Shown: piece after piece, positions 12,563 to 54,907 of the stretch
Layout: every line of letters begins with the position of its first letter
Numbering within the stretch: position 1 is the first letter of the stretch
NCBI GenBank assembly: GCA_963665845.2
Contig: OY762492.1
Location: forward strand, 576,001 to 640,000
Direction: 5' to 3'
DNA from: Candidatus Poribacteria bacterium
GTDB taxonomy: Bacteria; Poribacteria; WGA-4E; GCA-2687025
DNA: 64,000 bases
Made by a program: the position numbers and the translations under genes
Notes under the pieces: model-generated
What the model saw: only the letters and a program-made list of their open reading frames with translations
Databases searched by the model: none
What the model was told of the DNA's origin: nothing

Positions 12563-12590
12563 CTCGCATAAAGGTATCAAGAACAGAGGG

Positions 12591-13646: not shown

Positions 13647-13693
13647 GGGTACATACAGGTTCATATGTGCCGGCAAAGCGAGGCGCGGATCTT

Positions 13694-13776
13694 ATGAAGA
13701 AACGGCGGATGACAGAGGCAGCGGCGGCGCGCTCCTCTGCGGTAGGCAAATATACCGATGGAGTTTGAACGAATGA
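13694..13776 (+). pseudogene. Chimeric remnant of deleted WD40 gene(s)
   Basis: The 5' part resembles the start of the 12591 gene (ATGAAGAAACGGCG); the 3' part matches the end of the 10514 gene (GCGGTAGG.AAATATACCGATGGAGTTTGAACGAAT) with a 1-nt deletion. Confidence 0.65.
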
Positions 13777-19818: not shown

Positions 19819-19840
19819 GCGAAAGCGGAGGAGTACGCGG

Positions 19841-27522: not shown

Positions 27523-27779
27523 TTCCCCTTGAAAAGGGGGTTAGGAGGGTTTCGGCGCGGCGCTGGTCGTTCCCCCTTGAAAAGGGGGGCTAGGAGGGTT
27601 TCGGCGCGGCGCGCGGTTGCGCTTGGTTTTGAACTAGGATTTTCAGGATTTATAGGATTTTGAGATGCGGCATGCCGCGGGCGGCGTGTCGGTTTTCGGC
27701 AATTCTCTTGGCAATCTTTTCAATCATGCAAATCTTAGTTCAGACAGCAGACGGTTTCGGGTTCGCCTCTGGATTCCCG
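27523..27779. repeat. Composite intergenic repeat: two tandem family-B palindromes plus a family-C element
   Basis: TTCCCC(C)TTGAAAAGGGGG..TAGGAGGGTTTCGGCGCGGCGC twice (27523, 27570); 27627-27779 is similar to 6605-6749. Confidence 0.85.
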
Positions 27780-27823: not shown

Positions 27824-27850
27824 CATTTTACAAAAATAATTTGTAAAATG
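27824..27850. promoter_or_regulatory. Perfect 11-bp inverted repeat (operator-like) upstream of the ECF sigma gene
   Basis: CATTTTACAAA-aataa-TTTGTAAAATG in an AT-rich patch between divergent gyrB and the sigma gene. Confidence 0.55.
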
Positions 27851-27861
27851 AGGAGCATGCC

Positions 27862-28416
27862 ATGCTGTCCGCGAAAACGCGCATCGAGGCGCCGTCTCTT
27901 GAGGAAGCGCAGCGCGACTTTGAACGCAAAATACGCGAACGGGGCGAGCTGCTGCGGCATTACTTCGCCCGCCGAGTTCCAGATGCGCATCGCGTCGAAG
28001 ACCTGTACCAGGAGACGCTCATGCGCGCTTGGGCGTCCCGACCCGATCATCTGGAGGATGACGACCGATGGGCGCGCCGATGCATGACCATCGCGCGCAA
28101 TCTGCTCATCGACGACTGGCGGCGCATCCGCGCGGAACAGAATCGAAGAGAACGGCTCAGCCTGCGAAGCAAGGGAGACGCGCAGGCGGAGAACACGGCG
28201 CTAGACGACATGCTGGAGAGGGAGCTGGCGAAGGAGGCGGAGCTGGTTGTGAAGGAGCTGCCGCGCATCTACGAGGAGGCGCTGCGGCTGCGGGCGGAGG
28301 GCTTGTCGACCAAGGCGATGGCGCGCGCGATGAATGTAAAGCCGCAGACGGCGCAGGCGCGTTTACGGCGGGCGCGGGAACTGGCGCAGGAGCGTTTGAA
28401 AAAGAGAGGCTACTAG
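27862..28416 (+). CDS. ECF (sigma-70 group 4) RNA polymerase sigma factor
   Basis: Region 2 (EDLYQETLMRAW, IARNLLIDDWRR) and region 4 HTH (EGLSTKAMARAMNVKPQTAQARLRRAR). Confidence 0.88.
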   Translation: MLSAKTRIEAPSLEEAQRDFERKIRERGELLRHYFARRVPDAHRVEDLYQETLMRAWASRPDHLEDDDRWARRCMTIARNLLIDDWRRIRAEQNRRERLSLRSKGDAQAENTALDDMLERELAKEAELVVKELPRIYEEALRLRAEGLSTKAMARAMNVKPQTAQARLRRARELAQERLKKRGY

Positions 28417-28484
28417 GTTGCGGATTCGGCGCGCGGCGGTGTATATTGAGAACGGAACATCGCTGACGAAAATGGAGCGGCAGC

Positions 28485-30299
28485 ATGAACAAAACGCCCG
28501 CTTACACGCGCTGGAACCTGCCTGAAGACGCCTCCGCGCGTCTTGGAAAAAGCATGGTTGGCGACATTGACTACTCGCCGGACGGGTCGGTCATCGCGGT
28601 ATGCGGCAAGGCGGGGCTTTGGATATACGACGCAAAGACCTGCGCTGAAATCGCGCTGCTCGGCGAGAACGGAGAAGAGGCGCATGCGGCGGCGTTTTCG
28701 CCGGACGGGAGCCGAATCGCGGTTGCCTCGCCCGGCGTCTCCCCGACAAAACTATGGAACGCGCGGACATGGACGCTTGAAGGCGCGTTTGAAAACAGCA
28801 GAAACGGTTGGGGCATCGCCTATTCGCCGGACGGCGAAACGATCGCCGTGGCAGACAACGGCAAGAATGTGCGGCTGTATGATGTCAAGAGCTTCGAGCG
28901 CATTGCAACGCTTAAAGGGCATACAGAAGATGTGTACATCCTTGCGTTTTCACCCGACAGCAAAACGCTCGCCAGCGGCGCCTACGACAATACGGCGATC
29001 CTGTGGGATTTGGACAAACAGAAGCTGGGGCGGCGTTTGGAGGGACACCAGCTTGTGATAACCGGCGCCGCCTTTTCGCCGGACGGAAAAACTCTGGCGA
29101 CATGCAGCGACGACAAAACGGCGCGGCTCTGGGATGTCCAAACAGGGCGGTGCGACGCCATCTTGAAGGGACACCGCGGCGATGTACGATCGGTCGCCTT
29201 TTCGCCGGACGGGCAGAACCTTGTAACCGCAAGCGAGGACAAGACAGCCCGCGTCTGGGACGCTCAAACAGGCCGTTACCGGCAACAGCTGATTGGCAAT
29301 GTCGGAGGCCTTAACTGCGCCGTCTATTCGCCGGACGGCAAAACGATTGCCACAGGCGGAGACCTCAAAGACGGCATGCTCAAGTTGTGGGATTCAGCGG
29401 CATGCTCCGTTCGCCAAACGATTGAGGGGCATACCTCCTGTCTCGGCGGAATGGCGTATTCGCCCGACGGACGGACGCTCGCCGCCGGTTACTGGGACGA
29501 TTCGATACGGATATGGGATGTCCAAACGGGAGCCATGTTGAAGCGGCTTTTGGGGCATACTGCCGCTGTCCAATGCGCCGCGTATTCGCCCGACGGACGG
29601 ACGCTTGCCAGCGGGTCGTATGATCGTACGGCGCGGTTATGGGACGCTCGGACAGGGGAGCCGCTGAAAATATTGAAAGGACATGAGAAAGCGGTTTACG
29701 CCGCGGCGTTTTCACCGGACGGACATACGCTGGCAAGCGGAAGTTTTGACGAGACCGTGCGCATTTGGAATATCCAGAGCGGGAAGCCGGAGATGGTTTT
29801 TCGAGCGCATGAGCGGGGCGTTCTATGCGCCGCCTATTCCCCGAATGGACGCTTCATTGTCAGCGGCGGATGGGACGCCGCGATACGGATATGGGATGTC
29901 CAAACATATGCGATCCACAGGATGCTGGAAGGACATGAAAACAGAATCCTAGCCGTGACGTTTTCACCCGACGGAAAGATGGTTTTGAGCGGCGGCAGGG
30001 ACGATACAGCGCGGCTCTGGGATGTCCTAAGCGGGCGGCTGATCAAGACGCTCTACAGCGGCAACAGCGGCATTCGAGGTTCTGTCAGTTGCCTTGCGTT
30101 TTCACCCGACGGAAAGACGTTTGCTATTAACGACGGCATGCATGGCGCGCTCTTTTACGACCCGCGAACAGGCGCCTTCAAAGCGGATCATGAATGGTTA
30201 GGCGGACTGGTTGAAGAAATCGCCTTTTCGCCGGATGGGCAGACGCTCGCCGCCGGCAACACCGGAGGATCCGTCATTCTATCGCCGGCTCCGCAATAG
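28485..30299 (+). CDS. Cytoplasmic WD40 repeat protein 1 of 6
   Basis: N-terminal PAYTRWNLPEDASARLGK; about 13-14 WD repeats; no signal peptide. Confidence 0.92.
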   Translation: MNKTPAYTRWNLPEDASARLGKSMVGDIDYSPDGSVIAVCGKAGLWIYDAKTCAEIALLGENGEEAHAAAFSPDGSRIAVASPGVSPTKLWNARTWTLEGAFENSRNGWGIAYSPDGETIAVADNGKNVRLYDVKSFERIATLKGHTEDVYILAFSPDSKTLASGAYDNTAILWDLDKQKLGRRLEGHQLVITGAAFSPDGKTLATCSDDKTARLWDVQTGRCDAILKGHRGDVRSVAFSPDGQNLVTASEDKTARVWDAQTGRYRQQLIGNVGGLNCAVYSPDGKTIATGGDLKDGMLKLWDSAACSVRQTIEGHTSCLGGMAYSPDGRTLAAGYWDDSIRIWDVQTGAMLKRLLGHTAAVQCAAYSPDGRTLASGSYDRTARLWDARTGEPLKILKGHEKAVYAAAFSPDGHTLASGSFDETVRIWNIQSGKPEMVFRAHERGVLCAAYSPNGRFIVSGGWDAAIRIWDVQTYAIHRMLEGHENRILAVTFSPDGKMVLSGGRDDTARLWDVLSGRLIKTLYSGNSGIRGSVSCLAFSPDGKTFAINDGMHGALFYDPRTGAFKADHEWLGGLVEEIAFSPDGQTLAAGNTGGSVILSPAPQ

Positions 30300-30300
30300 A

Positions 30301-32109
30301 ATGAAGCGGCTGCATGAACAAACGCCCGCCTACGCGCATTGGAATTTGCCTGAAGGCGCCATCGCCCGTCTCGGCAAAGGGTGGATTTCTGACATCGCCT
30401 ACTCTCCAGACGGGAATATCTTGGCGGTCTGCGCCGGCCCAGGCATCTGGCTCTACGACGCGAAGACATGCGCCGAATTGTCGCTGTTGAGCGTCCCCGG
30501 CGAGGGCGCGCGCGCCGCCGTCTTTTCTCCCGCCGGCAGCGCGCTCGCCGCGGCGCATACGGGCGGAACGGCGCGAATATGGAACGCCCGGACGGGGGAG
30601 ATTCAGGCTGAAGCGGAAGAGATCTTCGACGCCCGATGCGCCGCATACTCGCAGGACGGCAAGACGATCGCCTTCGGCGCCGGCAGGACGATTCACCTGT
30701 TGGACGCCCGGCACGGCGAGACATTCACAACGCTGGACGGGCATCGGGGCGACGTCAACGCGGTCGCCTTTTCGCCGGACAGCGGGACGCTCGCCAGCGG
30801 CGGAAATGACAAAACAGTACGGATCTGGGACGCTGAAACAGGGGAGCGGCGCAAGAAAATCGCCCATAAGAACGATGATGTGAGATGTCTTGCCTTTTTC
30901 TCTGACGACAATATGATTGTCAGCGGCGGCGAAAAGTTGCGGCTTTGGGATGTCCATTCCGGGCATCTCCAAGCGGAGTTAAAGGGCAATACAGGGGCAA
31001 TCTCTTCAGTCGACCGTTCGCCGGACGGAACGGGGCTGCTCGCCGCCTGCGGCGACAGGACGGCGCGCATATGGGACGCCCAGTACGGCCGTCTCAGCCG
31101 ACAGCTGATTGGACATCTCGGCGGCATCGATTGCGCCGTCTATTCGCCGGACGGCAAAACGATCGTCACAGGAGGAAAAGGGGACGACGGAACGCTGCGG
31201 TTCTGGGATGTCCAGACAGGAGCCGTCCGCCAAACCGCCGCAGGACACACCGCTGTTGTGGACGGCCTCGCCTTCTCTCCCGACGGCAAAACGCTCGCTA
31301 CTGGACATCGGGACGACGCGATTCGGCTTTGGGATGTCCAAACATGCGCTCATTTGAAAACGATGCGCGGACACAGAGAAGATGTGAATTGCCTCGCCTA
31401 TTCGCCGGATGGACAGACCGTCGCCAGCGCATCCGACGACGACACCGCCAGGCTCTGGGATGTCCAAACAGGGAGGCAAAAAAAGGTTCTTAAAGGACAT
31501 GAAGATGTCGTTTTCGGAGTCGCATTCAACCCAAGCGGAAAAACGATCGCAACCGCCGGCTTCGACAAAACAATCCGAATATGGGATGTCCAAACAGGAC
31601 GGCAGAAAACAAAGCTGGTTGGACATGCCGAAGAGGTCAGTTATGTCGCATACGCCCCGAATGGACAGACGCTCGCCAGCGCATGCGACGATGGAACCAT
31701 ACGGCTGTGGGACGTTCCAACCGGCGCCCCCGCCGCAGAGTTGAAAAGCGACCAACTAAAGATGATGTATCAGATCGTCTTTTCGCCAAATGGACGTCTG
31801 CTTGCCGGCGTCGGGTACGGAAACGTCGTCTGCCTATGGGATGTTCGCAAGCGCCAGCTTCACAAGACCTTTGAAGGGCATACCGGCGAGTACATCTTTA
31901 GCGCCGCCTACTCTCCAGATGGACATACGATTGCCAGCGGAGGCATATACAAAACCGTTCGCTTATGGGATGTCCAAACAGGCGAGTCTACAGCGGTTCT
32001 GACAGGGCATTCAAGCGTTGTCTATGAGGTCTCGTTTTCGCCGGATGGAAAAACATTAGCTAGCGGAAGCGGCGACGGAACCATCCTGCTTTGGTCAACC
32101 GCTGAATAA
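30301..32109 (+). CDS. Cytoplasmic WD40 repeat protein 2 of 6
   Basis: PAYAHWNLPEGAIARLGKG; WD repeats; ends WSTAE. Confidence 0.92.
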   Translation: MKRLHEQTPAYAHWNLPEGAIARLGKGWISDIAYSPDGNILAVCAGPGIWLYDAKTCAELSLLSVPGEGARAAVFSPAGSALAAAHTGGTARIWNARTGEIQAEAEEIFDARCAAYSQDGKTIAFGAGRTIHLLDARHGETFTTLDGHRGDVNAVAFSPDSGTLASGGNDKTVRIWDAETGERRKKIAHKNDDVRCLAFFSDDNMIVSGGEKLRLWDVHSGHLQAELKGNTGAISSVDRSPDGTGLLAACGDRTARIWDAQYGRLSRQLIGHLGGIDCAVYSPDGKTIVTGGKGDDGTLRFWDVQTGAVRQTAAGHTAVVDGLAFSPDGKTLATGHRDDAIRLWDVQTCAHLKTMRGHREDVNCLAYSPDGQTVASASDDDTARLWDVQTGRQKKVLKGHEDVVFGVAFNPSGKTIATAGFDKTIRIWDVQTGRQKTKLVGHAEEVSYVAYAPNGQTLASACDDGTIRLWDVPTGAPAAELKSDQLKMMYQIVFSPNGRLLAGVGYGNVVCLWDVRKRQLHKTFEGHTGEYIFSAAYSPDGHTIASGGIYKTVRLWDVQTGESTAVLTGHSSVVYEVSFSPDGKTLASGSGDGTILLWSTAE

Positions 32110-32119
32110 ACAAGAAGGG

Positions 32120-33925
32120 ATGAAGCGCATGAACAACACGCCCGCATATGTCCAATGGAACCTGCCCGAAAGCGCCGTAGCCCGTCTCGGCAAGGGCTGG
32201 ATCTCCGACATCGCCTACTCTCCGGACGGGAAGCTTTTGGCGGTCTGCGCCGGGACAGGGATATGGCTCTACGACGCCGTGAACGGCGCCGAAACCGCGC
32301 TGTTGAGCATACGCAGCGAGGAAGCCAAAGCCGCCGCGTTTTCACCTGACGGAAAGACGCTTGCCGCCGCATATGATCACAGCATGGCGCGGTTATGGGA
32401 TGTTCAAACAGGGGAGATCTTAGATGCGTTTGAGAACGCCTGTAACGCTCGCAGCGCCGCCTTTTCGCCGGACGGAAAGACGATCGCTCTTGGCATGCAT
32501 GGCAGCGTCATGCTGCTGGATGTTCAATCCGGCAAATTGCTCGCTGAATTGAAAGAGATCCAATACGATGCGGCGTCGGTCGCCTTTTCGCCGGACGGAA
32601 AGACGCTCGCCAGCGGAAGCGGCGATAACATCGTCAGGCTGTGGGATGTCCAAACAGCCCAACTGAAAGCGGAGTTAAGACAGGAGCGCCGCGCCGCGTC
32701 GGTCGCCTTTTCGCCGGACGGCCGAACGCTCGCCAGCGGCGATGGCAAGAAGATTCTGCTGTGGGATGTCCAAACAGGCAGGCGCGTCGGCGAACTCGAA
32801 GGGCATACCGGCTTTGTAATGTCAGCCGCCTATTCGCCGGACGGACAGAACATCGTTGCCGCCAGCTACGAAAAGACAGCGCGCATCTGGAACGCCCGTA
32901 CCGGCAAGTGTCAACAGCGGCTCATCGGGCATACGGACCCTATCGAGTTTGCCGCCTATTCGCCGGACGGCAGAACGATCGCTACAGGCGAGATAGGACC
33001 CAGCGGCGCCGTCAGACTGTGGAACGCGCAGACAGGAGCCGAACGGCAAACCATCGAAGGGCATACCGACGTTGTCGGCGGGCTTGCCTTTTCGCCGGAC
33101 GGCCGGACGCTCGCAATCGGATATCAGGACTCAGCGGCGGTATGCCTGCGGGATGTCCAATCGCGCGTTTCGTTGGACATCTTGCGCGGCCATAACGCCG
33201 CCGTGAACGGCGTCGCCTATTCGCCGGATGGACAAACCGCCGCCTCCGCCTCCGACGACGGAACCGCGAGGCTCTGGGATGTCCAAACCGGGCGGGAAAA
33301 GAGCGTTTTATATGGACATGAGGACAGCGTTCTCGGAATCGCGTTCTCGCCGGACGGAAAGACGGTTGCAACCGCCGGCCGCGATCGTTCCGCGCGCTTA
33401 TGGGATGTCCAAACTGGACAACAGACAGCGGCGTTCATTGGACACACAGACGAGGTCAACGACGCCGCGTTCTCGCCGGACGGGCGGACGCTCGCCAGCG
33501 CGTCTGAAGACGGGACTATCATGCTGTGGGATATTTCAACAGGCGCCCAAATTGCGGCGCTGCAAAACGAACAGGTTGAATTCATGCGTCAAGTTCACTT
33601 TTCGCCGGACGGCGGCCTAATTGCCGGCGCCGGGCCGGGCAACGACGTCTGCCTATGGGATGTTCAGACGCGCCGCATTTATCGAACATTCAGGCATCCC
33701 AGTTATTATATGTATTGCGCCGCATTTTCGCCGGATGGACAGACGCTTGCTACGGGAGGTTTAGATAAAATCGTCCTGCTTTGGAATGTCCAAACAGGTC
33801 AACTCAAAAAGGAGCTGAAAGGGCATTCGTTTATGGCGGTCAGTCTTGCCTTTTCGCCGGATGGACATCTCTTAGCCAGCGGAAGCTATGACGGCTCTGT
33901 CCTGCTCTGGTCAACGGCAGAATAA
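32120..33925 (+). CDS. Cytoplasmic WD40 repeat protein 3 of 6
   Basis: PAYVQWNLPESAVARLGKG; WD repeats. Confidence 0.92.
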   Translation: MKRMNNTPAYVQWNLPESAVARLGKGWISDIAYSPDGKLLAVCAGTGIWLYDAVNGAETALLSIRSEEAKAAAFSPDGKTLAAAYDHSMARLWDVQTGEILDAFENACNARSAAFSPDGKTIALGMHGSVMLLDVQSGKLLAELKEIQYDAASVAFSPDGKTLASGSGDNIVRLWDVQTAQLKAELRQERRAASVAFSPDGRTLASGDGKKILLWDVQTGRRVGELEGHTGFVMSAAYSPDGQNIVAASYEKTARIWNARTGKCQQRLIGHTDPIEFAAYSPDGRTIATGEIGPSGAVRLWNAQTGAERQTIEGHTDVVGGLAFSPDGRTLAIGYQDSAAVCLRDVQSRVSLDILRGHNAAVNGVAYSPDGQTAASASDDGTARLWDVQTGREKSVLYGHEDSVLGIAFSPDGKTVATAGRDRSARLWDVQTGQQTAAFIGHTDEVNDAAFSPDGRTLASASEDGTIMLWDISTGAQIAALQNEQVEFMRQVHFSPDGGLIAGAGPGNDVCLWDVQTRRIYRTFRHPSYYMYCAAFSPDGQTLATGGLDKIVLLWNVQTGQLKKELKGHSFMAVSLAFSPDGHLLASGSYDGSVLLWSTAE

Positions 33926-33935
33926 ACAAGAAAGG

Positions 33936-35741
33936 ATGAATCGCATGCGCCACACGCCCGCTTACACACGCTGGAACCTGCCTGAAGGCGCCGTAGCCCG
34001 CCTCGGCAAGGGCTGGATTTCCGACATCGCCTATTCGCCGAACGGGAAGCTCTTGGCAGTCTGCGCCGGCCCTGGCATCTGGCTTTACGACGCGAAGACC
34101 TACGCCGAATTGTCGCTGTTAAGCGTCCACGGCGAGGGCGCCGAAGCCGCGGCGTTTTCGCCCAACGGAAAGACGATCGCCGCCGCCTATGAAGGCGCGG
34201 CGCGGCTCTGGGATGTCCGAACAGGCAAGATTCGAACCGAGTATGAAGAGACCGGCGACAGCCAGAGCGTTGCGTTCTCGCCGAACGGAAAGACGATCGC
34301 TGTCGGCAGATATGAGAAGGATGTCTCGCTGCTGGATGTCCGATTCGGAAAGACATTTACGGCGCTGAAAGGCGAAGAGTCTGTGGACGCGCTCGCTTTT
34401 TCTCCAAACAGCCGGACGCTTGCCTGCGACAGCGACAGCAATTCAGTACGGCTCTGGGACGCTGAAACGGCGAAACGCCTTAAGACGCTCAAAGGACACG
34501 ACGCCTATGCAACCTGCGCGGCATACTCGCCGGACGGAAAAACGCTCGCCAGCGGCAGCAGCGACGAGACGGTCAGACTATGGGACGTCAAAACGGGTCA
34601 ATGCATAACAACGCTCAAGGGGCATACCGAATCTGTCCATTCGGTCGCCTTTTCGCCGGACGGAAAGCGGCTTGTCAGCGCCGGCGCCGATAGAACGGCG
34701 CGCATCTGGGACGCGCAAACAGGACAGTATCGACAGCAGCTGATTGGACATATCGGCGGCATCGATTGCGCCGTCTATTCGCCGGACGGCAAAACGATCG
34801 TCACCGGCGGGCGGCTCGGCGACGGAACGCTCCGATGCTGGGACGCGCAAACAGCAGCCGCGCGTCAAACGATTGAAGGGCATACGCCGATGATCGACGG
34901 GCTTGCCTTTTCTCCCAACGGGGGGACGCTCGCTATCGGGCATTATGACGACGCGATACGGCTTTGGGATGTCCAAACGCGCTCGCATTTTAAAACTCTG
35001 CGCGGACACACCGGCGACATCGGCAGCGTCGCTTACTCGCCGGACGGCCGGACGCTCGCCAGCGCCAGCTACGACTCGACGGCGCGGCTTTGGGATGTCC
35101 AAACCGGACGGCAAAAAGCGGTTCTGAAAGGACATGAAAGTTTCGTCAACAGCGTCGCGTTTTCCCCTAACGGACAGACGCTCGCCACCGCCGGCGACGA
35201 CGGTACGGTTCGCCTATGGAATGTCCAAACCGGACGGCATCAAACGACTCTCATCGGACGCGCCGACAGAGTCCATTGCGCAGCCTACTCGCCGGACGGG
35301 CAAACGCTTGCTTCCGCCGGTTTCGGCGGAACCATACAGCTTTGGGATGTTCCAAGCCTTTCCGAAGCGGCGGCGTTGAAACGCAAAGAGTTGGGGAATG
35401 CGCTTCGCGTCGTTTTTTCACCGAATGGACATCTTCTCGCCGCTGTCGGATACGGAGGCGGCGTGTGTCTATGGGATGTTCGAAAGCGCGCGCTTGTGAA
35501 CATCTTAGAAGGGCATCTTGAGGACGGCGTCATTGCCGCGGCGTTTTCGCCGGATGGACAAACCCTCGCCAGCGGCGGAAATGACAAAACCGTACGGCTT
35601 TGGGATGTCCAAACAGGGACGCCTAAAGCGGCGCTTGAGCATGGAAGCGATGTGTACGAGGTTGAGTTTTCTTCGGACGGCACGATTATCGCCAGCGCTG
35701 GACATGACGGAACCATCCTGCTCTGGTCAACCGCTCAATAA
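33936..35741 (+). CDS. Cytoplasmic WD40 repeat protein 4 of 6
   Basis: PAYTRWNLPEGAVARLGKG; start ATG 33936 or 33945. Confidence 0.92.
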   Translation: MNRMRHTPAYTRWNLPEGAVARLGKGWISDIAYSPNGKLLAVCAGPGIWLYDAKTYAELSLLSVHGEGAEAAAFSPNGKTIAAAYEGAARLWDVRTGKIRTEYEETGDSQSVAFSPNGKTIAVGRYEKDVSLLDVRFGKTFTALKGEESVDALAFSPNSRTLACDSDSNSVRLWDAETAKRLKTLKGHDAYATCAAYSPDGKTLASGSSDETVRLWDVKTGQCITTLKGHTESVHSVAFSPDGKRLVSAGADRTARIWDAQTGQYRQQLIGHIGGIDCAVYSPDGKTIVTGGRLGDGTLRCWDAQTAAARQTIEGHTPMIDGLAFSPNGGTLAIGHYDDAIRLWDVQTRSHFKTLRGHTGDIGSVAYSPDGRTLASASYDSTARLWDVQTGRQKAVLKGHESFVNSVAFSPNGQTLATAGDDGTVRLWNVQTGRHQTTLIGRADRVHCAAYSPDGQTLASAGFGGTIQLWDVPSLSEAAALKRKELGNALRVVFSPNGHLLAAVGYGGGVCLWDVRKRALVNILEGHLEDGVIAAAFSPDGQTLASGGNDKTVRLWDVQTGTPKAALEHGSDVYEVEFSSDGTIIASAGHDGTILLWSTAQ

Positions 35742-35760
35742 ACAAGAAGGGGCGAAGCGC

Positions 35761-37560
35761 ATGAACGAGCCGCCCGCCTATGTCCAATGGAACCTGCCTG
35801 AAGGCGCCGTAGCCCGCCTCGGCAAGGGGTGGATCTCCGACATCGCCTATTCTCCGGACGGGAAGATCTTGGCGGTCTGCGCGGGCCCTGGCATCTGGCT
35901 CTACGACGGCAAAACATTCACTGACACAGCGCTGCTGAACGTTCATGGCGAACGCCCTATAGCCGCGGCGTTTGCGCCCAGCGGAAAGACGATCGCCGCC
36001 GCGTACCACCGCAGCGAAACGGCGCGCATCTGGAATGTCCAAACAGGCGCGGTTCAAACCGAGTTTGAGGTCGGCCGCCGCGCTTACAGCGTTGCCTATT
36101 CGCCGAACGGAAGGACGATCGCCGTCGGTCTGGACAGCGCCGTCCTGTTGGCGGACGCCCGATTCGGCAAACCCTTCGCAGAGCTGAAACGCGGCAGAGA
36201 CTATCATGCGGTCGCGCTCGCCTTTTCGCCGAACAGCCGCATGCTCGCCAGCAACGGCGTCAAAGGGGCGATCCATCTCTGGGACGCCGAAACAGGGGAT
36301 CTCCTGAAAAAGATCGATACAGAGAGCGATGTTTATTGTCTCGCCTTTTCTCCAGACGGCAAAACGCTCGCCAGCGGCGAAGACGACGAAACGGCGCGTC
36401 TTTGGGATGTCCAAACCGGACAGCTGAAAGCGGAAATGAAAGAGCATAGCGACGCCGTTACCTCCATCGCCTATTCGCCGGACGGGAGATACATCATAGC
36501 CTCTTGTTATGACAATAAAGAAGCGCGCATCTGGAACGCCCATACGGGACAGCTGCGGCGCCAGATGACTGGACATGCCTACGGCGCCCGCTTCGCCGTC
36601 TATTCGCCGGACGGGCGGATGATCGTCACGGGCGGATGGAGGCACGGCGGAACGCTCCGCGTCTGGGACGCGCATATGTTTTCCGAGAAGCGCGTTATCG
36701 AAGAACATACGGCGGCAGTGGACGCGCTCGCCTATTCCCCGAACGGCAAGCTGATCGCTTCTGGACATTGGGACGACTCGATTCGGCTGTGGGATGTCCA
36801 AACGCTCTCGCTTCAAAAAACGCTGCTTGGACATAAGGCAGACCTGGAGCGCGCCGCATTTTCTCCAGACGGCAAAACGATCGCCAGCGCGAGCTACGAT
36901 CAAACCGCGCGGCTATGGGATGTCCAAACAGGCAGGGAAAAGGCTGTTTTAAGACATGGAGACTTGGTGAACGACGCCGCGTTTTCCCCAAGCGGGAAGA
37001 CGGTCGCCACCGCATGCCGCGACCATACCGTTCAACTATGGGATGTCCAAACAGGGCGGCGTCAAAAAACGCTCCATGGACATGAAGGCTCCGTGTCCAG
37101 CGTCGCCTATTTGCCGGATGGACAAACGCTCCTCTCCGCGTCCGGCGAGGGCGTTCTTCTTTGGGACGTTCCAAGCGGCTCCCAAATTGCGGCGTTGAAA
37201 AGCAAGGAAATGGAGAGAGTGTCTCGAGCGGCATTGTCGCCGAACGGGCGGCTGCTTGCCGTTGTCGGAACCGAACGCGCCGCATGTTTATGGGATGTTC
37301 GAAAGCGTCAGATCGTCAGGCGCTTTGAAGGTTTCACCGACGAGCTGCTCTACTGCGTCCAGTTTGCGCCGGACGGAAAACGGATCGCGATTGGCGACGG
37401 CAAGCTGGTTCGAGTGTTGGATGTCCAGACAGGCAAATCGGTCATGACGCTGGAGGGGCATTCTGACAGCGTGAACGATCTCGCCTTCTCCCCCGACGGA
37501 AAAACGCTCGCCGCCGATTGCCACGACGGAACCGTACTGATATGGTCAATCGACAGATAA
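35761..37560 (+). CDS. Cytoplasmic WD40 repeat protein 5 of 6
   Basis: PAYVQWNLPEGAVARLGKG; start at ATG 35761 by homology to the paralogues. Confidence 0.92.
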   Translation: MNEPPAYVQWNLPEGAVARLGKGWISDIAYSPDGKILAVCAGPGIWLYDGKTFTDTALLNVHGERPIAAAFAPSGKTIAAAYHRSETARIWNVQTGAVQTEFEVGRRAYSVAYSPNGRTIAVGLDSAVLLADARFGKPFAELKRGRDYHAVALAFSPNSRMLASNGVKGAIHLWDAETGDLLKKIDTESDVYCLAFSPDGKTLASGEDDETARLWDVQTGQLKAEMKEHSDAVTSIAYSPDGRYIIASCYDNKEARIWNAHTGQLRRQMTGHAYGARFAVYSPDGRMIVTGGWRHGGTLRVWDAHMFSEKRVIEEHTAAVDALAYSPNGKLIASGHWDDSIRLWDVQTLSLQKTLLGHKADLERAAFSPDGKTIASASYDQTARLWDVQTGREKAVLRHGDLVNDAAFSPSGKTVATACRDHTVQLWDVQTGRRQKTLHGHEGSVSSVAYLPDGQTLLSASGEGVLLWDVPSGSQIAALKSKEMERVSRAALSPNGRLLAVVGTERAACLWDVRKRQIVRRFEGFTDELLYCVQFAPDGKRIAIGDGKLVRVLDVQTGKSVMTLEGHSDSVNDLAFSPDGKTLAADCHDGTVLIWSIDR

Positions 37561-37575
37561 ATTGAAGGGCGGCGT

Positions 37576-39369
37576 ATGCCTAGAACGGACGCTTACACGC
37601 AATGGAACCTGCCGGAAGGCGCTGCCGCGCGTCTCGGCAAAGGGTGGCTCTCCGACATCGCCTACTCTCCCGACGGAGAGCTGATGGCGGTCTGCGCGGA
37701 CGCCGGCGCATGGATCTACGACGCGAAAACATACGCTGAACGGAACCTGCTGAACAGGTCGGCGCTTGCCGCCGCCTTCGCGCCGGACGGCAGAACGCTC
37801 GTTCTCGCCGGCCCAGAGGAACCCGAGCTGTGGGACGCCTATACAGGCGAGATGCTAACGAAGTTTGAGGAGCCGCCCGATTCGCTGATCTACGCCGCTT
37901 ATTCGCCGGACGGGAGATTCGTCGCCGGCGCATGCTACGACCATACCGCGCGGATATGGGACGCCCGAAGCGGAAAACTCGTCCACACTCTTGAAGGGCA
38001 TACCGACATCGTCTACTGCGTCGCCTACTCCCCCGACGGCGCGCTTCTCGCCAGCGGAAGCGGAGACGGCGCGGCGCGTCTCTGGGATGCGGCGTCCGGC
38101 TATCAACCGAAAGCGGTTCTACAGGGACATGAGGACGCGGTCACATGCGCCGCCTTCTCCCCGGACGGCTTGACGCTTGCGACCGGCAGCGACGACGCGA
38201 CAGCGCGTCTCTGGGATGTCCAAACAGGCGGATGCAAAGCGACGCTCAAAGGACATTCCGCCCGCGTCATGTCTGTCCACTTCTCCCCGTCGGGAGAAAC
38301 GCTTGTGAGCGGCAGTTTCGACAAAACAGCGCGCATCTGGAATGTCCATACAGGACAGCTGAAGCAGCGGCTCATCGGATATGTCGGCGACATCGACTGC
38401 GCGGTCTATTCTCCAGACGGCAGAACGATTGCCAGCGGCGGAGGGCGTAAAGACGGGCGCCTGCTCATGTGGGACGCCCGAACAGGCGCCGTCCGCCAAG
38501 CCATCGAAGGACACACCTCGCATGTTGAGTCCGCCGCGTTTTCGCCTGACAGCCGAACGGTCGCGACTGGACATTGGGACAACGCGATTCGGCTGTGGGA
38601 TGTCCAAACGCGCGCGCAATTGATCGCCATGCGCGGCCATAAAGGCTATATAACATGCGTTGCGTTTTCACCGGATGGACAGACTCTTGCGAGCGCCAGT
38701 TTCGACGGAACCGCCAAGCTGTGGAATGTCCTAACAGGCGCCCATCCGAAGACGTTTTCTGGTCATAAAGGCGCCGTCTACAGCGCGGCGTTCTCTCCTG
38801 ACGGCAAAACGGTCGTCACCGCCGGCAAAGGCGGCAAGGCGCGGATATGGGATGTCCAAACGCTCCAAGAAAGGTCCATGATCGAGACGAATGCGGAGGC
38901 TGCTTATTCCGCCGTTTTTTCTCCTGACGGCAATTTTCTAGCGCTCGCCTGCAGCGACAAGACAGCTCAGATATGGGATGTCCAATCGCGGCGCCTCATA
39001 AAGACATTTGAGGGGCATACCGATGTTGTTTGGACAGCGCAGTTCTCGCCGGACAGCAGAACGCTGGCGACCGCCTCCGCCGATGAGACGGCGCGTCTTT
39101 GGGATGTCCAAACAGGCGCGCCGCTGCATACCTTAAACGGCCATGAGGATCGAGTGGTGTCGGCCGTGTTCTCCCCTGACGGACGGAGGCTCGCCACCGC
39201 CAGTTCCGACGAGACAGCGCGGCTCTGGGATGTCCAAACAGGCGCGCCGCTGGATACTTTAGAGGGGCATGCGGATGAGGTGTTCGACGCCGCGTTCTCG
39301 CCCGACGGGCGCGCCCTAGCGACCGCCGGCTACGACGGGATCGTCTATCTTTGGACGATTCCGAATTAA
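37576..39369 (+). CDS. Cytoplasmic WD40 repeat protein 6 of 6
   Basis: DAYTQWNLPEGAAARLGKG; WD repeats. Confidence 0.92.
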   Translation: MPRTDAYTQWNLPEGAAARLGKGWLSDIAYSPDGELMAVCADAGAWIYDAKTYAERNLLNRSALAAAFAPDGRTLVLAGPEEPELWDAYTGEMLTKFEEPPDSLIYAAYSPDGRFVAGACYDHTARIWDARSGKLVHTLEGHTDIVYCVAYSPDGALLASGSGDGAARLWDAASGYQPKAVLQGHEDAVTCAAFSPDGLTLATGSDDATARLWDVQTGGCKATLKGHSARVMSVHFSPSGETLVSGSFDKTARIWNVHTGQLKQRLIGYVGDIDCAVYSPDGRTIASGGGRKDGRLLMWDARTGAVRQAIEGHTSHVESAAFSPDSRTVATGHWDNAIRLWDVQTRAQLIAMRGHKGYITCVAFSPDGQTLASASFDGTAKLWNVLTGAHPKTFSGHKGAVYSAAFSPDGKTVVTAGKGGKARIWDVQTLQERSMIETNAEAAYSAVFSPDGNFLALACSDKTAQIWDVQSRRLIKTFEGHTDVVWTAQFSPDSRTLATASADETARLWDVQTGAPLHTLNGHEDRVVSAVFSPDGRRLATASSDETARLWDVQTGAPLDTLEGHADEVFDAAFSPDGRALATAGYDGIVYLWTIPN

Positions 39370-39757: not shown

Positions 39758-41431
39758 TCACATCTGATTCGGCGCCCGCGCCCCAAGCATGTTCAGCCCG
39801 TTCGCCATCGTCGTTTGAACCGCCTTCACAAGCAGCAGCCGCGCCTCCGTCAGCGCCGGCTCCTCCGGGTCCAGGATGCGCCGCCGGTCGTAAAACAGAT
39901 GAAACGCCGCCGCCAGCTCCCGCAGCATGTGCGGTATCGTGTGCGGCTCAAACAGCTCCGCGGCGTTCATCACAGCGGCGGGGAAATAGGCGCACCGCTT
40001 GATGATATCGGTCTCCTCCTGTTCTTTCAACAGCGACAGGTCCGCGCTGTCAACGTTCGGCTCCGCGATCCCTTTCTCCCGCGCCTGACGAAACAGGCTC
40101 GCCGCCCGCGCATGCGCGTACTGAAGGTAGTAGACAGGATTGTCGTTGGACGTTTTCTTGACAAGGTCGATGTCGAAGTTCAGTTGAGAATTCATGTTGC
40201 GGTGAATCATGAACAGGCGAACCGCGTCCTCGCCGACCTCGTCCAGCAGATCGTCCAGCGTTTCATAAGTGGCGCGGCGCGTGCTCATTTTGACCTTTTC
40301 GCCGTCCCGTTCAAGCGTCACAAACTGGTGAACGAGCGCTTTCATGTGTGAGATGTCGTAGCCCAACGCTTGAACTGCCGCAAAGACGTCCGGATATTCA
40401 GCGATATGATCCGCGCCGAAGATGTCGATGATGCGGTCGAACCCGCGCCGAATCTTTTCCCGGTGGTAGGCGATGTCGGGCAGGCGGTAGGTCGGCTCTC
40501 GACCAGGTCCGCTTCGGATGATCGGCGGGTCTTTCGGCAAGCCAAACGCGGTCGCTTGAAACCAGACGGCTCCGTCCTTGTCGTAGGCGTACCCGGCGGC
40601 GCGCAGCTTCTCCACAACATCCTCAATCAGCCCCTGTTCATAAAGCGTCTGCTCGCTAAAATAAACGTCAAACACGATGCCGATGCGTTTGAGCGTCGCA
40701 AGGATGCCATTAAAAATGGTCTCGGCGGCGGCAGCCCGAAACGGCTCCACATCTTTCTCGTCAGCCAACCGATCCCCATGTTCCTTGATCAGTTCCTGCG
40801 CAATGTCTCGGATATACTCGCCTTGGTACCCTTCTTCAGGAAATTCAGCCGGCAGATTCAGAAGCTCAAGATACCTGGCGCGCACCGTTTCACCGAGGAC
40901 GAGCATCTGCCTCCCGGCGTCGTTGCTGTAATACTCGCGCGTGACGTCGTATCCGACCGCCTCCATGAGACGCGCGATGACGTCGCCGAAGACCGCCCCC
41001 CGCGCATGTCCAACCGTGAGCGGCCCTGTCGGATTCAAGCTGACGAACTCGACCAGCGCCGTTTGACCCGCGTATCGGCTCGATCTGCCGTATTCTCCAC
41101 CTTCATTCAGAACTTTCCGCAGCGCCTGTTCGCGCCATGCGTTTGAAAGCCAAAAGTTGATAAACCCCGGCCCGGCGATTTCGACCTTTTCAATCATCCC
41201 GCTCGGTTCAATCCGTTTGACGATGATCTCGGCGATAGCGCGCGGATTCATCTTCGCCTCCCGCGCGAGACCGAGGGCGGCGGAGGTTGCCGCGTCGCCG
41301 TGCGCCTCTTCTCTCGGCCGGTCGATGGAAATTTCCGGCAGGCTGTCAAGTGTCAGCTCTCCGTCCTCCCGCGCTGACTGAAGGGCGCCCCGTACCGCGT
41401 TTTCAAGCAGGCTTGCCGTTTCAATCCACAT
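39758..41431 (-). CDS. argS: Arginine--tRNA ligase
   Basis: GPGFINF, VEFVSLNPTGPLTVGHARG, KMSTR and YYLQYAHAR; the start overlaps the end of prcA. Confidence 0.96.
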   Translation of the reverse strand: MWIETASLLENAVRGALQSAREDGELTLDSLPEISIDRPREEAHGDAATSAALGLAREAKMNPRAIAEIIVKRIEPSGMIEKVEIAGPGFINFWLSNAWREQALRKVLNEGGEYGRSSRYAGQTALVEFVSLNPTGPLTVGHARGAVFGDVIARLMEAVGYDVTREYYSNDAGRQMLVLGETVRARYLELLNLPAEFPEEGYQGEYIRDIAQELIKEHGDRLADEKDVEPFRAAAAETIFNGILATLKRIGIVFDVYFSEQTLYEQGLIEDVVEKLRAAGYAYDKDGAVWFQATAFGLPKDPPIIRSGPGREPTYRLPDIAYHREKIRRGFDRIIDIFGADHIAEYPDVFAAVQALGYDISHMKALVHQFVTLERDGEKVKMSTRRATYETLDDLLDEVGEDAVRLFMIHRNMNSQLNFDIDLVKKTSNDNPVYYLQYAHARAASLFRQAREKGIAEPNVDSADLSLLKEQEETDIIKRCAYFPAAVMNAAELFEPHTIPHMLRELAAAFHLFYDRRRILDPEEPALTEARLLLVKAVQTTMANGLNMLGARAPNQM

Positions 41432-42155
41432 CGCCGCCGTTCCTTTCGTTGTCCGCTGTTTCGCCGAGCGCTTCGGCGAGTTCATCGCGCAGCGCCCGTC
41501 TAAATTTGCGCCGTCCGCGCGGTTCCTCTAAAAAAGCCGCCTCAAGACCGCCGCTGGAAACCGGCTCCTCATCGGATGTTTGGGCATGTTGAATCGCGTC
41601 CGCCGCAAGCCGCACCGCCGCATGCAGCGTCAAATCAGGCTCATAATTCTCATCCAGCCAAGCTGCTATGAGATTCGCCTTACCGCCGATGACGCAGAAC
41701 CGCTCATCGTCTCTCAAAACGCCGTTGTAAGAGATTCGGTACAGCTGATTCTGCGCATACCCAGGCTCCCCCAGCTCCGCCACAATCAGCTCCACCTCAA
41801 ACGGCTTCGCGTCAAATTGCCGCCAGACGTTGCCGATATACTGCGAATACAGGTTGGCGAGCCATCGCCCCGTCACATCTTCTCGGCTGTAGGTGAACCC
41901 TTTCAGCTCCGCTTGTTCGATGCCGACGGTGCGCAGCAGGTCGTATTCAGGGACGCTTCCGACCGCGGCAAAGGCGACTCGGTCGTAGATTTCGGAGATT
42001 TTGTAAAGCGTTCGGCTGGCGTTCTGCGCGACGATGGCGATCCCGTCCGCATATTCCAGGGCGGCCACATCCCGCCCGTATTTGATGCCTTCGCGGGCAA
42101 GCTCATTTTTTTCGTTCATGATCTGTTCTGGGGACGCGAAGAGCGGCGTCGGCAT
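41421..42155 (-). CDS. prcA: 20S proteasome alpha subunit
   Basis: SPEQIMNEKNELAREGI, KISEIYDRVAFAAVG, YSREDVTGR and KPFEVEL resemble actinobacterial PrcA; operon context. Confidence 0.95.
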   Translation of the reverse strand: MPTPLFASPEQIMNEKNELAREGIKYGRDVAALEYADGIAIVAQNASRTLYKISEIYDRVAFAAVGSVPEYDLLRTVGIEQAELKGFTYSREDVTGRWLANLYSQYIGNVWRQFDAKPFEVELIVAELGEPGYAQNQLYRISYNGVLRDDERFCVIGGKANLIAAWLDENYEPDLTLHAAVRLAADAIQHAQTSDEEPVSSGGLEAAFLEEPRGRRKFRRALRDELAEALGETADNERNGGDVD

Positions 42156-42174
42156 CGCAGTTCCTTAGGTCTGT

Positions 42175-43011
42175 TTACGGTTGGCGGCGAGCGGCGTAAT
42201 CGGCGCGCCACTGCTCAAGAAGCGTCTCCGCGGCGGAGCGTATCTCCTCTAACGGCGCGTCCTGAACGCCGTCTGCCGAGACGGTTTTAACGGTCGGATA
42301 GACGCCGCGCACAAAATCGAAACCGCCGGTGGCGATGTCTTCGTCGCTGGCGTCTAGAAGCGCTTCGACGGCGGCATGGACAGCCTCCTCGCGCGTCATG
42401 TTCGCCTTGAACCTTTTTTTAAGAACGATATACGCCTCTTTGCCGCCGGAGCCGGTCGCGCAAAACGCGCGCTCCTCATACCGCCCGCCTGCAGGGTCGT
42501 ACTTGAAAATGCGCCCCGTCTTGCGCTTCAGATCGTACCCTGCAAACAGCGGCGCAACGACAAAACCCTGCATCGCGGCGGGCAGATTCTGTGTCACCAG
42601 ATGGGTCAGGTAATTCGCCTTCCCTTCGAGGCTCAGCGGGATGCCCTCCACCTTTTCATAAAACTCGATCTGCGTTTGAAGCAGCTTCGCCATCTGCGCG
42701 GCAGGACCGGCGACGCCGGCAATCGCGACGGCGGAAAGATGATCCATCTCCATCACCTTTTCGATTTCGCGCTCGGCGATCTCGTACCCCGCGGTCGCTT
42801 GCCGATCCCCGGCGATCAGAACCCCCGCGTCATATTTTGCCGCTAGGATCGTCGTCCCATGCGTCATCGGCAGGGCGGTTTCAACGCTTCCCTGCGGAAG
42901 CGCAGAGTTCAACAGCTCCGGGCAATTGGAACGGAGCAGCGCCACAAAATCGGCGCGCTCCGCCCCTTGCCTTCGTTCAAGGCTGAATGGAAGCTCGGCG
43001 GGGTGAATCAT
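42175..43011 (-). CDS. prcB: 20S proteasome beta subunit with propeptide
   Basis: HG|TTI autoprocessing site, AGDRQAT, SLEGKAN and GSG. Confidence 0.96.
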   Translation of the reverse strand: MIHPAELPFSLERRQGAERADFVALLRSNCPELLNSALPQGSVETALPMTHGTTILAAKYDAGVLIAGDRQATAGYEIAEREIEKVMEMDHLSAVAIAGVAGPAAQMAKLLQTQIEFYEKVEGIPLSLEGKANYLTHLVTQNLPAAMQGFVVAPLFAGYDLKRKTGRIFKYDPAGGRYEERAFCATGSGGKEAYIVLKKRFKANMTREEAVHAAVEALLDASDEDIATGGFDFVRGVYPTVKTVSADGVQDAPLEEIRSAAETLLEQWRADYAARRQP

Positions 43012-43208
43012 TCGCCGCCGCGCTGGATGTAATTTTCAACAAACTCCTCGGAATCTTCGAGGAGCTCGTCGATCTCATCCAGCAGTTTGTCGATGTCCTC
43101 TTTGATGGCGGCGCCTTTTTCAACAATGCCGCTCTCGTTTTCAATCTGTTCGGGATTCTCGCGGACTTTTTCATCCCGACGGGCCTGTTTCTGTTCAGGT
43201 TTCGGCAT
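43008..43208 (-). CDS. pup: Prokaryotic ubiquitin-like protein Pup
   Basis: 66 aa; acidic DKLLDEIDELLEDSEEFVENYIQRGGE with C-terminal GGE; lies between dop and prcB. Confidence 0.93.
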   Translation of the reverse strand: MPKPEQKQARRDEKVRENPEQIENESGIVEKGAAIKEDIDKLLDEIDELLEDSEEFVENYIQRGGE

Positions 43209-43220
43209 CGCGGTTCCTCC

Positions 43221-44750
43221 TTACGGGTTGACTTTCGACTTCGACTCAATATATTCCAGCAGCTGCGCCGGGGTTTCGCTTTGTTGGAGTATCTCACCCA
43301 CCATTGTGCGCGTTCCCCGCAGCGGATGCAACATCGGCACCATCTGCAAATCGCGTTCGTTCGTGTCAAAAATGAGCGAATTCCAGCTCGCCGCATGAAT
43401 CGCTTCCGGAAAACGCTTGAGACATGTTCCCCTAAAATAGGCGCGCGTGTCTAGCGGCGGGTTGCTGATTGCATGAATCGCCTCTTCTTGAGAAATGATG
43501 CGGTCGATGCGCCCCGCTTTCTGAAGGCGGTAAAAAATGCCCGCCCTCGGACGAATATCATGGTACTGCAGATCCAGCATGCGCATCCGATGATTCGTCC
43601 AGTCCAGGTCGTACCGATCCCGATAAGCGGTCAGCCAAGAGCGTTTGATAACCCAATCCAGCCGCCTGTCCAGCTGCGAAGCGCCGCTTTCCAGCATATC
43701 CAGCGTCTTTCCCCACTGGCGAACCACATCCGCGTTCATCTCATGGCGCGGTCCCGCGTTCCGCTGATCCGCCACATACTGCTCCGCCAGCCGATGATAC
43801 TGCCTTTGAATGTCGATGGCGGACAGGCGGCGCGTATGCTCCATCGCATAATCGCGTTCAAAATCCAGGTCTCTGGACGCGGCGCGCATCGCAGAGACAG
43901 GCTCCCGCATCTTGAACTGATCTCGAATCAGCCCATCCTCAATCATCTGAAGCGTCAGCGCGGCGGTTCCCGCTTTTAAGTACGTCGCAAATTCCGACAT
44001 GTTCGCGTCCCCGACAATCACATGGAACCGCCGGTACAGCTTCTCGTCCGCGTGCGGCTCGTCCCTTGTGTTGATAATCGGGCGGTCGACCATCGTGCTA
44101 AGCCCGACCTCCGTTTCGAAGAAGTCGGAGCGCTGCGCAATTTGAAAATCGGCAGGCTTGCCTCCGTTCTCGGCGCCGACCTTCCCCGCCCCGGCGAAGA
44201 TCTGCCGCGTTACAAGAAACGGCGTGAACCCGTCCACTAGCGACTGAAACGGCGTCTTTCGGTCGACAAGGTAGTTTTCATGGCACCCGTAGCTATGCCC
44301 TTTTCCGTCGGAGTTGTTTTTGTAAATGGCGAGTTCGCGCGGCTCCTCCAGCATCTGCTCGGCGAGCCTGCAGCTCATCTCCAAGATCAATTCGCCCGCC
44401 TTGTCGTAAATCACCAGGTCGCGCGGGTTGGAGCATTCAGGCGTGCAATACTCTGGATGCGCGTGGTCGACATAATACCTGCCGCCGTTGGTGAGTATGT
44501 CGTTCACAGCGGGGGCGGCTTCGTCGTCTCCGTCCGCGCCGATGTCCGGGTTGACGATCTCGCTCATGAACCCGCGCGCGTCCATGAGCGGGCTTTCCTC
44601 CTCGTAATTCCATGTGGCTGAACGCCGCGGATCGCGCCCTTTATAGCTGTTGACAACCATCGTGGACGCGGCGACAGGGTCAAAATCGGCGGCGCGGCGC
44701 ACCGCGATTCCGTACTCGGTCTCGATGCCCATCGCTTTGATGAGAGCCAT
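43221..44750 (-). CDS. dop: Pup deamidase/depupylase Dop
   Basis: GIETEYG, Dop-loop WNYEEESPLMDARGF, NGGRYYVDHAHPEY, NTRDEPHAD and RFHVIVGDAN; the Dop-loop distinguishes it from PafA. Confidence 0.9.
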   Translation of the reverse strand: MALIKAMGIETEYGIAVRRAADFDPVAASTMVVNSYKGRDPRRSATWNYEEESPLMDARGFMSEIVNPDIGADGDDEAAPAVNDILTNGGRYYVDHAHPEYCTPECSNPRDLVIYDKAGELILEMSCRLAEQMLEEPRELAIYKNNSDGKGHSYGCHENYLVDRKTPFQSLVDGFTPFLVTRQIFAGAGKVGAENGGKPADFQIAQRSDFFETEVGLSTMVDRPIINTRDEPHADEKLYRRFHVIVGDANMSEFATYLKAGTAALTLQMIEDGLIRDQFKMREPVSAMRAASRDLDFERDYAMEHTRRLSAIDIQRQYHRLAEQYVADQRNAGPRHEMNADVVRQWGKTLDMLESGASQLDRRLDWVIKRSWLTAYRDRYDLDWTNHRMRMLDLQYHDIRPRAGIFYRLQKAGRIDRIISQEEAIHAISNPPLDTRAYFRGTCLKRFPEAIHAASWNSLIFDTNERDLQMVPMLHPLRGTRTMVGEILQQSETPAQLLEYIESKSKVNP

Positions 44751-44764
44751 AAACGGTTCCGCCT

Positions 44765-46513: not shown

Positions 46514-46584
46514 GAATCTCTTCCTCCGCGGCGCTGTCTTAGGAACCATACCATATCATATCATACGCTTTCTTTCATGCGGCG

Positions 46585-50940: not shown

Positions 50941-50953
50941 CAAGGAGCTTTAC

Positions 50954-52195: not shown

Positions 52196-52212
52196 CATTG
52201 AAAGGAAACGCG

Positions 52213-53448: not shown

Positions 53449-53471
53449 AACGCATCAAAGGAGAAAACGCG

Positions 53472-54701: not shown

Positions 54702-54869
54702 CTGACCTCATGCTGAAAGTTGGGACAGCTGAACGACCAAAGTCTTTATTCATGGGAAAGAGGCGTCGCCAACCAGGTCGTACTCCCGCGTAAGCGGGAA
54801 TCCAGAGGCGCCGCAGACGACATCTGCGTTCGCCCGCCGGCATGTCCCAACTTAAGACGTAAAGGTCAG
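54702..54869. mobile_element. 168-bp MITE, copy 2
   Basis: TIRs CTGACCTCATGCTGAAAGTTGGGACA / TGTCCCAACTTAAGACGTAAAGGTCAG; 8-bp direct repeat TGGATTGA at 54694-54701 and 54870-54877. Confidence 0.9.
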
Positions 54870-54907
54870 TGGATTGAAAGGGGCATGAAAACGAAAGAGA
54901 CGCTTGC

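Follow-up and report, generated by a model that had tools for sequence, protein, structure and literature searches.

In Candidatus Poribacteria, PF00400 proteins are highly expanded, making up 0.7 to 2.1% of genes (Kamke et al. 2014, PMC3909097, Table S7). The same study discusses the WD40 genes of this lineage in terms of export: of 133 genes, 24% were assigned a TM segment and 31% a signal peptide (Table S9), and a Por-type C-terminal domain was described. WD40 proteins of Poribacteria are usually read as exported host-interaction factors. For prokaryotic, highly repetitive WD40 proteins, a conserved scaffold with diverse hot-spot sites has already been described in PMC5587647, which also reports that sigma-70 genes often neighbour WD40 genes in Planctomycetes. 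ECF57 sigma factors carry WD40-like C-terminal extensions (PMC8999054). No locus like the one described below was found in titles or abstract openings of the Poribacteria literature on ECF, sigma factors or WD40 proteins, a search in which subscription journals were scarcely covered.

We analyzed a stretch of 64,000 nucleotides (the window, to which all positions refer) from a poribacterial genome and compared it with a congener genome, G001. On the forward strand of the window, an ECF-type sigma factor gene (27862..28416) encodes 184 amino acids with sigma regions 2 and 4 only and without a C-terminal extension. The initial annotation had described it as followed by six tandem WD40 paralogs of about 600 amino acids with gaps of 1 to 19 bp, and this layout was confirmed. 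W1 (28485..30299; 604 amino acids, 14 WD40 repeats) is co-oriented with the sigma gene and begins 68 bp after it. It is followed on the same strand, at distances of 1, 10, 10, 19, and 15 bp, by W2 (30301..32109; 602 amino acids), W3 (32120..33925; 601 amino acids), W4 (33936..35741; the distance is counted to the ATG at 33936, and there is an alternative start at 33945), W5 (35761..37560; 599 amino acids), and W6 (37576..39369; 597 amino acids), whose stop codon overlaps a convergent zinc-ribbon gene. The six open reading frames thus span 597 to 604 amino acids, with mutual identities of 43 to 62%. The ECF/W1 and W1/W2 junctions showed no differences in short-read contigs (three runs of one study, possibly of the source sample).

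The Pfam search of W1 to W6 gave propeller families only, among the matches listed, in agreement with the annotated lack of a catalytic domain, and each protein has 13 or 14 WD40 repeats. For W4, the one protein modelled, AlphaFold2 predicted 14 four-stranded blades (pLDDT 93, pTM 0.89) forming two 7-bladed propellers, as the annotation had proposed for the whole set. Both by sequence and in a fold search, the best match was the Nostoc 14-repeat protein PDB 2ymu. It shares the double 7-blade propeller with the W proteins; compared with the proteins of PMC5587647, the W repeats are only moderately alike, and the W genes form a six-gene tandem array. The search for WD40 homologs was dominated by long repeat proteins. 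All six proteins have the N-terminal arrangement of a poribacterial family, in which the motif LPEGAxARLGKG precedes the WD40 repeats. The motif, which had been claimed for every copy, is exact in four of the six and reads LPEDASARLGKS in W1 and LPESAVARLGKG in W3. A shared junction motif was indeed found at W2/W3, W3/W4, and W4/W5; it is merely the coding end (WST-A-E/Q-stop) plus a Shine-Dalgarno sequence, so we rejected it as a regulatory element and regard it as a duplication footprint.

The motif family is present in 70 of the 80 other genomes of the class that we searched. In 62 of the 67 top matches from other genera, a signal-like segment immediately precedes the motif; the remaining five comprise three ECF-TM fusions and two proteins without a signal. 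The W genes belong to this class-wide, normally exported family. W1 to W6 themselves start 5 to 9 residues before the conserved Tyr and have no hydrophobic N terminus, signal peptide, or TM helix. Their N-terminal hydropathy is at most 0.7, versus typically 2 to 3 in exported paralogs, by a simple hydropathy test rather than SignalP. The signal-less proteins contain 6 to 11 cysteines each, versus 0 to 3 in 17 exported paralogs (p=3e-5). With the export signal lost, the W proteins likely work inside the cell, and both the missing signal peptides and the intracellular location asserted in the annotation are supported. The W genes are under purifying selection, with dN/dS values of 0.19 to 0.34.

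Phylogenetic analysis, for which all trees were computed in quick mode with SH-aLRT support only, placed all 16 signal-less rows of the two congeneric genomes in one clade (SH-aLRT 100). Within it, the array next to the ECF gene and a second array form subclades. A gene for a second, divergent Clp ATPase, sharing 47% identity with the other Clp of the genome, precedes the second array by about 115 bp. This array comprises three genes in the genome studied and six in G001 and is accompanied by no sigma gene, so that the clade amounts to 9 to 11 copies across the two arrays. Copy number differs between the species: W1 is missing from G001, where the W2 ortholog (93% identical) lies directly 3' of the ECF gene, and two G001 copies are frameshifted, including that of W5 in the G001 assembly. 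The W3 orthologs are 85% identical. The W clade lies apart both from ECF-fused propellers, which scatter over the propeller tree, and from DarT-fused ones; the row fus_G072 had been cut at a wrong point, which makes its position in that tree unreliable.

As described in the annotation, loop residues vary between copies on a conserved scaffold, with a hot-spot identity between paralogs of 15% versus 60% in the core. Between orthologs the hot-spot identity is 77%, and each W protein's surface signature is kept by its ortholog. The hot-spot dN/dS was 0.51 (0.39 to 0.64) between orthologs, pointing to purifying selection, and 1.04 (0.85 to 1.31) between paralogs, the latter against a gene-wide dS near saturation. 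Exported paralogs vary at their hot spots just as much as the W proteins do, so this variability lends no support to a receptor set dedicated to the ECF.

The sigma factor matched Sigma70_r2 (PF04542; 28.7 bits, cutoff 24), Sigma70_r4_2 (PF08281; 33.9 bits, cutoff 25.7), and TIGR02937 (45.4 bits, cutoff 42.9). With regions 2 and 4 present and region 3 absent, it is a group 4 (ECF) factor. Its best NCBIfam match was SigZ at 63 bits, far under the cutoff of 169. It resembles the stand-alone SigZ/ECF238-like factors in its short length and lack of an anti-sigma gene at the locus but does not have their C-terminal cysteine extension. The SigZ-like genes of G005 to G007 adjoin other genes, with no WD40 gene next to them, and we rejected them as orthologs; their join in the tree was flagged as long-branch. 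The protein ends at 184 residues (185 in G001), leaving no room for a WD40 extension of the ECF57 or ECF-TM-WD40 kind, and the search for longer, fused homologs found none, which is weak evidence. Its orthologs, 83 to 92% identical, are confined to the genus, with none found outside it and only distant matches in metagenome contigs. In a search of 1.84 billion representatives the next relative scored 64 bits, and the protein is an orphan at 50% clustering. It evolves under constraint (dN/dS against G001 of 0.21), and its monomer model is of moderate quality (pLDDT 71).

A promoter pattern of the housekeeping type, TTGCGG-N18-TATATT, lies at 28418..28447 on the forward strand in the ECF/W1 spacer, as annotated. 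In G001, 31 of the 33 spacer bases are conserved (p about 0.02 to 0.03 versus the synonymous background). Of 1215 upstream regions, 84 carry the pattern on the gene strand and 15 on the opposite strand; within genes it turned up in 2. By these sequence measures the spacer promoter looks real, and it likely drives the array, probably independently of the sigma gene, as the annotation had suggested. No terminator-like site was found between the ECF gene and W1, and read-through is therefore possible. Just 5' of the ECF ribosome-binding site, a perfect 9-5-9 inverted repeat (27826..27848; identical in G001) is a candidate operator. Neither of the two congeneric genomes has another perfect copy, each having one site with two mismatches, and no palindrome regulon was found in five genomes. 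By eye, we saw no promoter motif common to the ECF gene and both array leaders.

We put the probability at roughly 0.58 that the W genes are tandem duplicates of a poribacterial WD40 gene acting as cytoplasmic binding adaptors with their own promoter, the ECF gene being a mere neighbour. One such gene would have lost its signal peptide and been duplicated in tandem into W1 to W6, giving a small repertoire of adaptors, each with its own residues on the propeller top face and presumably distinct partners. Transcription would likely start at the spacer promoter, and the ECF would be independent of the array. A competing explanation, unlikely in our estimate, joins sigma gene and array in one regulatory module that would be the soluble, split equivalent of ECF57 and of the ECF-TM-WD40 fusions, with propellers that bind the sigma factor or are its regulon and relay different intracellular cues. 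It draws on the short, terminator-free spacing, the absence of an anti-sigma gene nearby, the Planctomycetes neighbourhoods, and the ECF57 extensions cited above, and on ECF-TM fusions to the same WD40 family in six other poribacterial genomes of the class. The fusions are alike in setting an ECF beside WD40 propellers without an anti-sigma; the W array differs in having separate genes and no TM helix, and its sigma factor falls, on a long branch, outside the fused-ECF clade (support 98 in the quick tree), with a 35-residue local match to one fused ECF only. Since unrelated ECFs or DarT toxins are fused to this family elsewhere, a functional link is possible, though unlikely. The gene order is kept in G001, though this is one congener only and the region is wholly syntenic. 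Around gyrB and argS of other genera (four genomes each), flanks of up to 1.5 kb contained no ECF gene and no WD40 gene, so both may have arrived together. Against the module stand the separateness of the W clade from ECF-fused propellers, the array's own promoter pattern, and the finding that, of 68 family loci from other genera, a single one has a separate sigma gene upstream; the probability that some ECF adjoins a WD40 cluster by chance is roughly 10 to 23%. The sister array belongs to the same clade yet lacks a sigma gene, so the neighbouring ECF is probably not a dedicated partner, and the annotated ECF multi-receptor system is unsupported and unlikely. It is doubtful, too, that an orphan ECF is controlled by, or controls, six soluble double-propeller WD40 sensors. 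Such a system would be a split form of the membrane-spanning fusions that faces the cytoplasm and takes several inputs, its repertoire built from an exported symbiosis-protein family moved indoors.

WD40 receptors occur in eukaryotic ubiquitin ligases, and the propellers might similarly be substrate receptors for AAA+ proteolysis. We consider this improbable. The second Clp ATPase beside the sister array had no match at E<=1e-150 in six genomes of other genera, and some 2 kb separate the W array from a Pup-proteasome cluster; that cluster, however, is on the opposite strand beyond argS and a zinc-ribbon gene, and the adjacency may be due to chance. Quite improbable is a reading in which free-standing propellers sense invader (phage) proteins or serve as decoys for them, acting in trans on defence effectors. 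WD40-DarT fusions were found at at least 5 of 12 DarT loci retrieved from other Poribacteria, one of them signal-less and flanked by TIR and NADAR genes, and the copy turnover and variable hot spots are compatible with such a role. The DarT query, however, had no match in either congeneric genome, neither array holds an effector gene, the W clade is apart from DarT-fused propellers, and the ortholog hot spots are under purifying rather than diversifying selection. Very unlikely is export without need of a signal, as in other eukaryote-like proteins, or an origin as weakly constrained duplication by-products: descent from an exported family and the frameshifted G001 copies would fit, but the gain of cysteines argues against export and the gene-wide purifying selection against weak constraint.

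The array is a new, probably intracellular variant of the known WD40 expansion. It shares lineage and PF00400 expansion with the proteins of Kamke et al. 2014 but differs in its lost signal, gained cysteines, and lack of a C-terminal extension. A clade that lost export, gained cysteines, and expanded, together with a module fused to ECF or DarT elsewhere, means that the WD40 genes counted in these genomes should not all be taken as host-directed. Were the ECF link true, it would represent a new way of regulating a sigma factor without an anti-sigma. Tandem WD40 arrays are common in the genome studied, which has 111 WD40 open reading frames in 57 clusters, six of them tandem arrays with at least six genes.

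The six tandem WD40 genes behind the ECF sigma gene are a real, genus-restricted and likely cytoplasmic clade of the known Poribacterial WD40 expansion. The locus is as the initial annotation had described it, with a sigma gene of 184 codons (ECF, 27862-28416) followed by W1 to W6, all signal-less and ending at 39369. Pairwise identity among the W proteins is 43 to 62%, and the predicted structure of W4 has 14 blades (pLDDT 93), with the Nostoc 14-repeat protein 2ymu as its top solved-structure match. The N-terminal motif claimed for all six is exact in only four, and the common junction sequence, although present, comes down to the coding 3' end and the Shine-Dalgarno of genes that arose by duplication. 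Across the first two junctions, contigs of short reads from three runs of one study, perhaps of the source sample, agree with the assembly. In W2 (30301-30330), the loss of one base compared with W1 and with W2 of the congener genome G001 has put the ancestral ATG out of frame; an in-frame upstream ATG, one base past the W1 stop, would replace it.

A six-gene array is ordinary in this genome, since its 111 open reading frames with at least three WD40 repeats fall into 57 clusters, of which six contain 6 to 9 genes, and high WD40 abundance in Poribacteria has already been published (PMC3909097). The distinctive trait of the W proteins is their N terminus. When 80 other genomes of the class were searched, 70 contained members of the motif family. 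In a nonrandom survey of 68 top-ranked loci from other genera, the motif was found in 67, and these members carry immediately before it a signal-like hydrophobic stretch (62), carry an ECF and a transmembrane (TM) helix fused ahead of it (3), or are signal-less (2). The W proteins start 5 to 9 residues ahead of the conserved Tyr, where mature exported relatives would begin. Cysteine tends to be avoided in exported bacterial proteins, and the eight full-length signal-less proteins of this genome contain 6 to 11 cysteines versus 0 to 3 in 17 exported paralogues (P = 3e-5, a comparison of paralogues, which are not independent); the W proteins are thus likely cytoplasmic. Another tandem array of seven WD40 genes lies 6 kb upstream (10514-22059), with hydrophobic N termini and, in several genes, a lipobox-like Cys.

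A sister signal-less array provides a natural control for the sigma linkage. At 2387118-2391750 of contig C1, it immediately follows the gene of a divergent second Clp ATPase (together 2384681-2391750, L017; in G001 on contig C32, L019/L020), with no sigma gene at the locus, so that an ECF is present at one of the two signal-less arrays only. In six genomes from other genera, a search for this ATPase gave no match at E ≤ 1e-150. In a quick tree, all 16 signal-less sequences of the two genomes form one clade (SH-aLRT 100) divided into ECF-side and clp-side subclades; therefore, signal loss is older than both arrays. G001 has the order ECF-W2-W3-W4-W5-W6 without W1, and six clp-side copies versus three here. 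Its W5 and one clp-side copy are frameshifted, possibly through assembly errors, and its paralogues share identical tracts of up to 240 bp. As read from these sequences, the arrays evolve by birth and death with local exchange.

Six orthologous WD40 pairs have dN/dS values of 0.19 to 0.34; the value of the ECF is 0.21 and that of gyrB 0.12. We examined the top-face hot spots of the blades, which we take to be R1-2, R1, and D-1. With these positions placed by motif, which inflates the apparent conservation of the SPDG loop class, identity among W paralogues is 15% at hot spots, 27% on the outer strand, and 60% at core positions, and orthologues are 77% identical at hot spots (dN/dS 0.51; 0.39 to 0.64). 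Being diverse between paralogues and kept between orthologues, the hot spots suggest that each copy likely has its own maintained, putative binding surface. The initial observation that loops vary on a conserved scaffold was borne out, but not as a peculiarity of W1 to W6: hot spots and core differ just as much among exported paralogues (17% versus 63%), and this contrast has already been reported for prokaryotic WD40 proteins (PMC5587647). The ECF-side array is not singled out, and its variability is no demonstration of ongoing positive selection.

The array likely has its own predicted housekeeping promoter, as had been suggested. In the spacer between ECF and W1, the initial 33 bases, 31 of them identical in G001 although the rest of the spacer diverges, fit the pattern TTGCnn-N16-19-TATnnT, which occurs in 84 of 1,215 upstream regions on the gene strand, in 15 on the opposite strand, and in 2 inside genes. 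A comparable sequence, TTGGCG-N19-TATCAT, is likewise conserved at the clp-side array. Read-through from ECF to W1 may occur, because no terminator-like site lies between them. A perfect palindrome at 27826-27848, conserved and unique, precedes the ECF ribosome-binding site, suggesting that a DNA-binding regulator controls this gene. At 27525-27615, an intergenic palindromic repeat (core CCCCTTGAAAAGGGGG, 364 exact copies on C1) occurs twice, and the same site in G001 lacks it.

We consider it most likely (probability roughly 0.58) that W1 to W6 would act as adaptors, each with distinct partners and transcribed from their own promoter. That the ECF and the array form a functional module, as first proposed, seems doubtful. 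Among 40 relatives searched, an ECF orthologue was found only in G001 (orthologues 83 to 92% identical), and the next match among 1.84 billion representatives scored 64 bits. The linkage seen in that one congener is weak evidence, because gyrB and a zinc peptidase beside it and an argS-proteasome block on another contig are kept too. Short flanks of gyrB and of argS (four genomes of other genera each) contained neither ECF nor array. The chance that some ECF sits just upstream of a WD40 cluster is roughly 10 to 23% (57 clusters, 9 to 20 ECF loci). The ECF has no extension and no adjoining anti-sigma gene; soluble anti-sigma types as yet unknown may exist (PMC7826278). A module is favored by ECF-linker-TM-WD40 fusions with the same WD40 family in six Poribacteria genomes (G050, G048, G032, G062, G039, and G072; loci L087, L088, L153, L155, and L156), which echo ECF57 sigma factors (PMC8999054). 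However, the fused ECFs form one clade that excludes the ECF studied here, and their propellers are scattered in the tree, outside the W clade. The ECF-TM module has at least 27 candidates in many genomes, and this genome encodes, at C1:1715994-1726880 and elsewhere, a set of eleven ECF paralogues that bear a TM helix as well as variable C-terminal extensions; five of these genes are clustered.

A role of the propellers as protease adaptors is improbable, and one as defence sensors slightly more so. WD40-DarT fusions (5 of 12 DarT loci fetched) show that the family is also used as a module on intracellular effectors, but a DarT query had no match in either this genome or G001. Such fusions recur in Poribacteria (L154:7935-12193 in G067; L176 to L179 in G072, G053, G027, and G021). 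In G067, the fusion is signal-less and is flanked by a TIR/SEFIR gene on one side and a NADAR antitoxin gene on the other, making this locus a candidate sensor-gated DarTG variant; among the 10 matches listed, of 95, in a narrow literature search, none was relevant.

By sequence motifs, a trypsin-like serine protease domain is fused to the same WD40 family at 61613-63136 and at C1:228913-231555, and at 50819-56500 three M16-like peptidase genes stand in tandem ahead of a DNA methyltransferase-HNH fusion. A Pup-proteasome cluster (proteasomal ATPase, Pup-ligase family, and proteasome subunits) occupies 41421-46549 on the minus strand.
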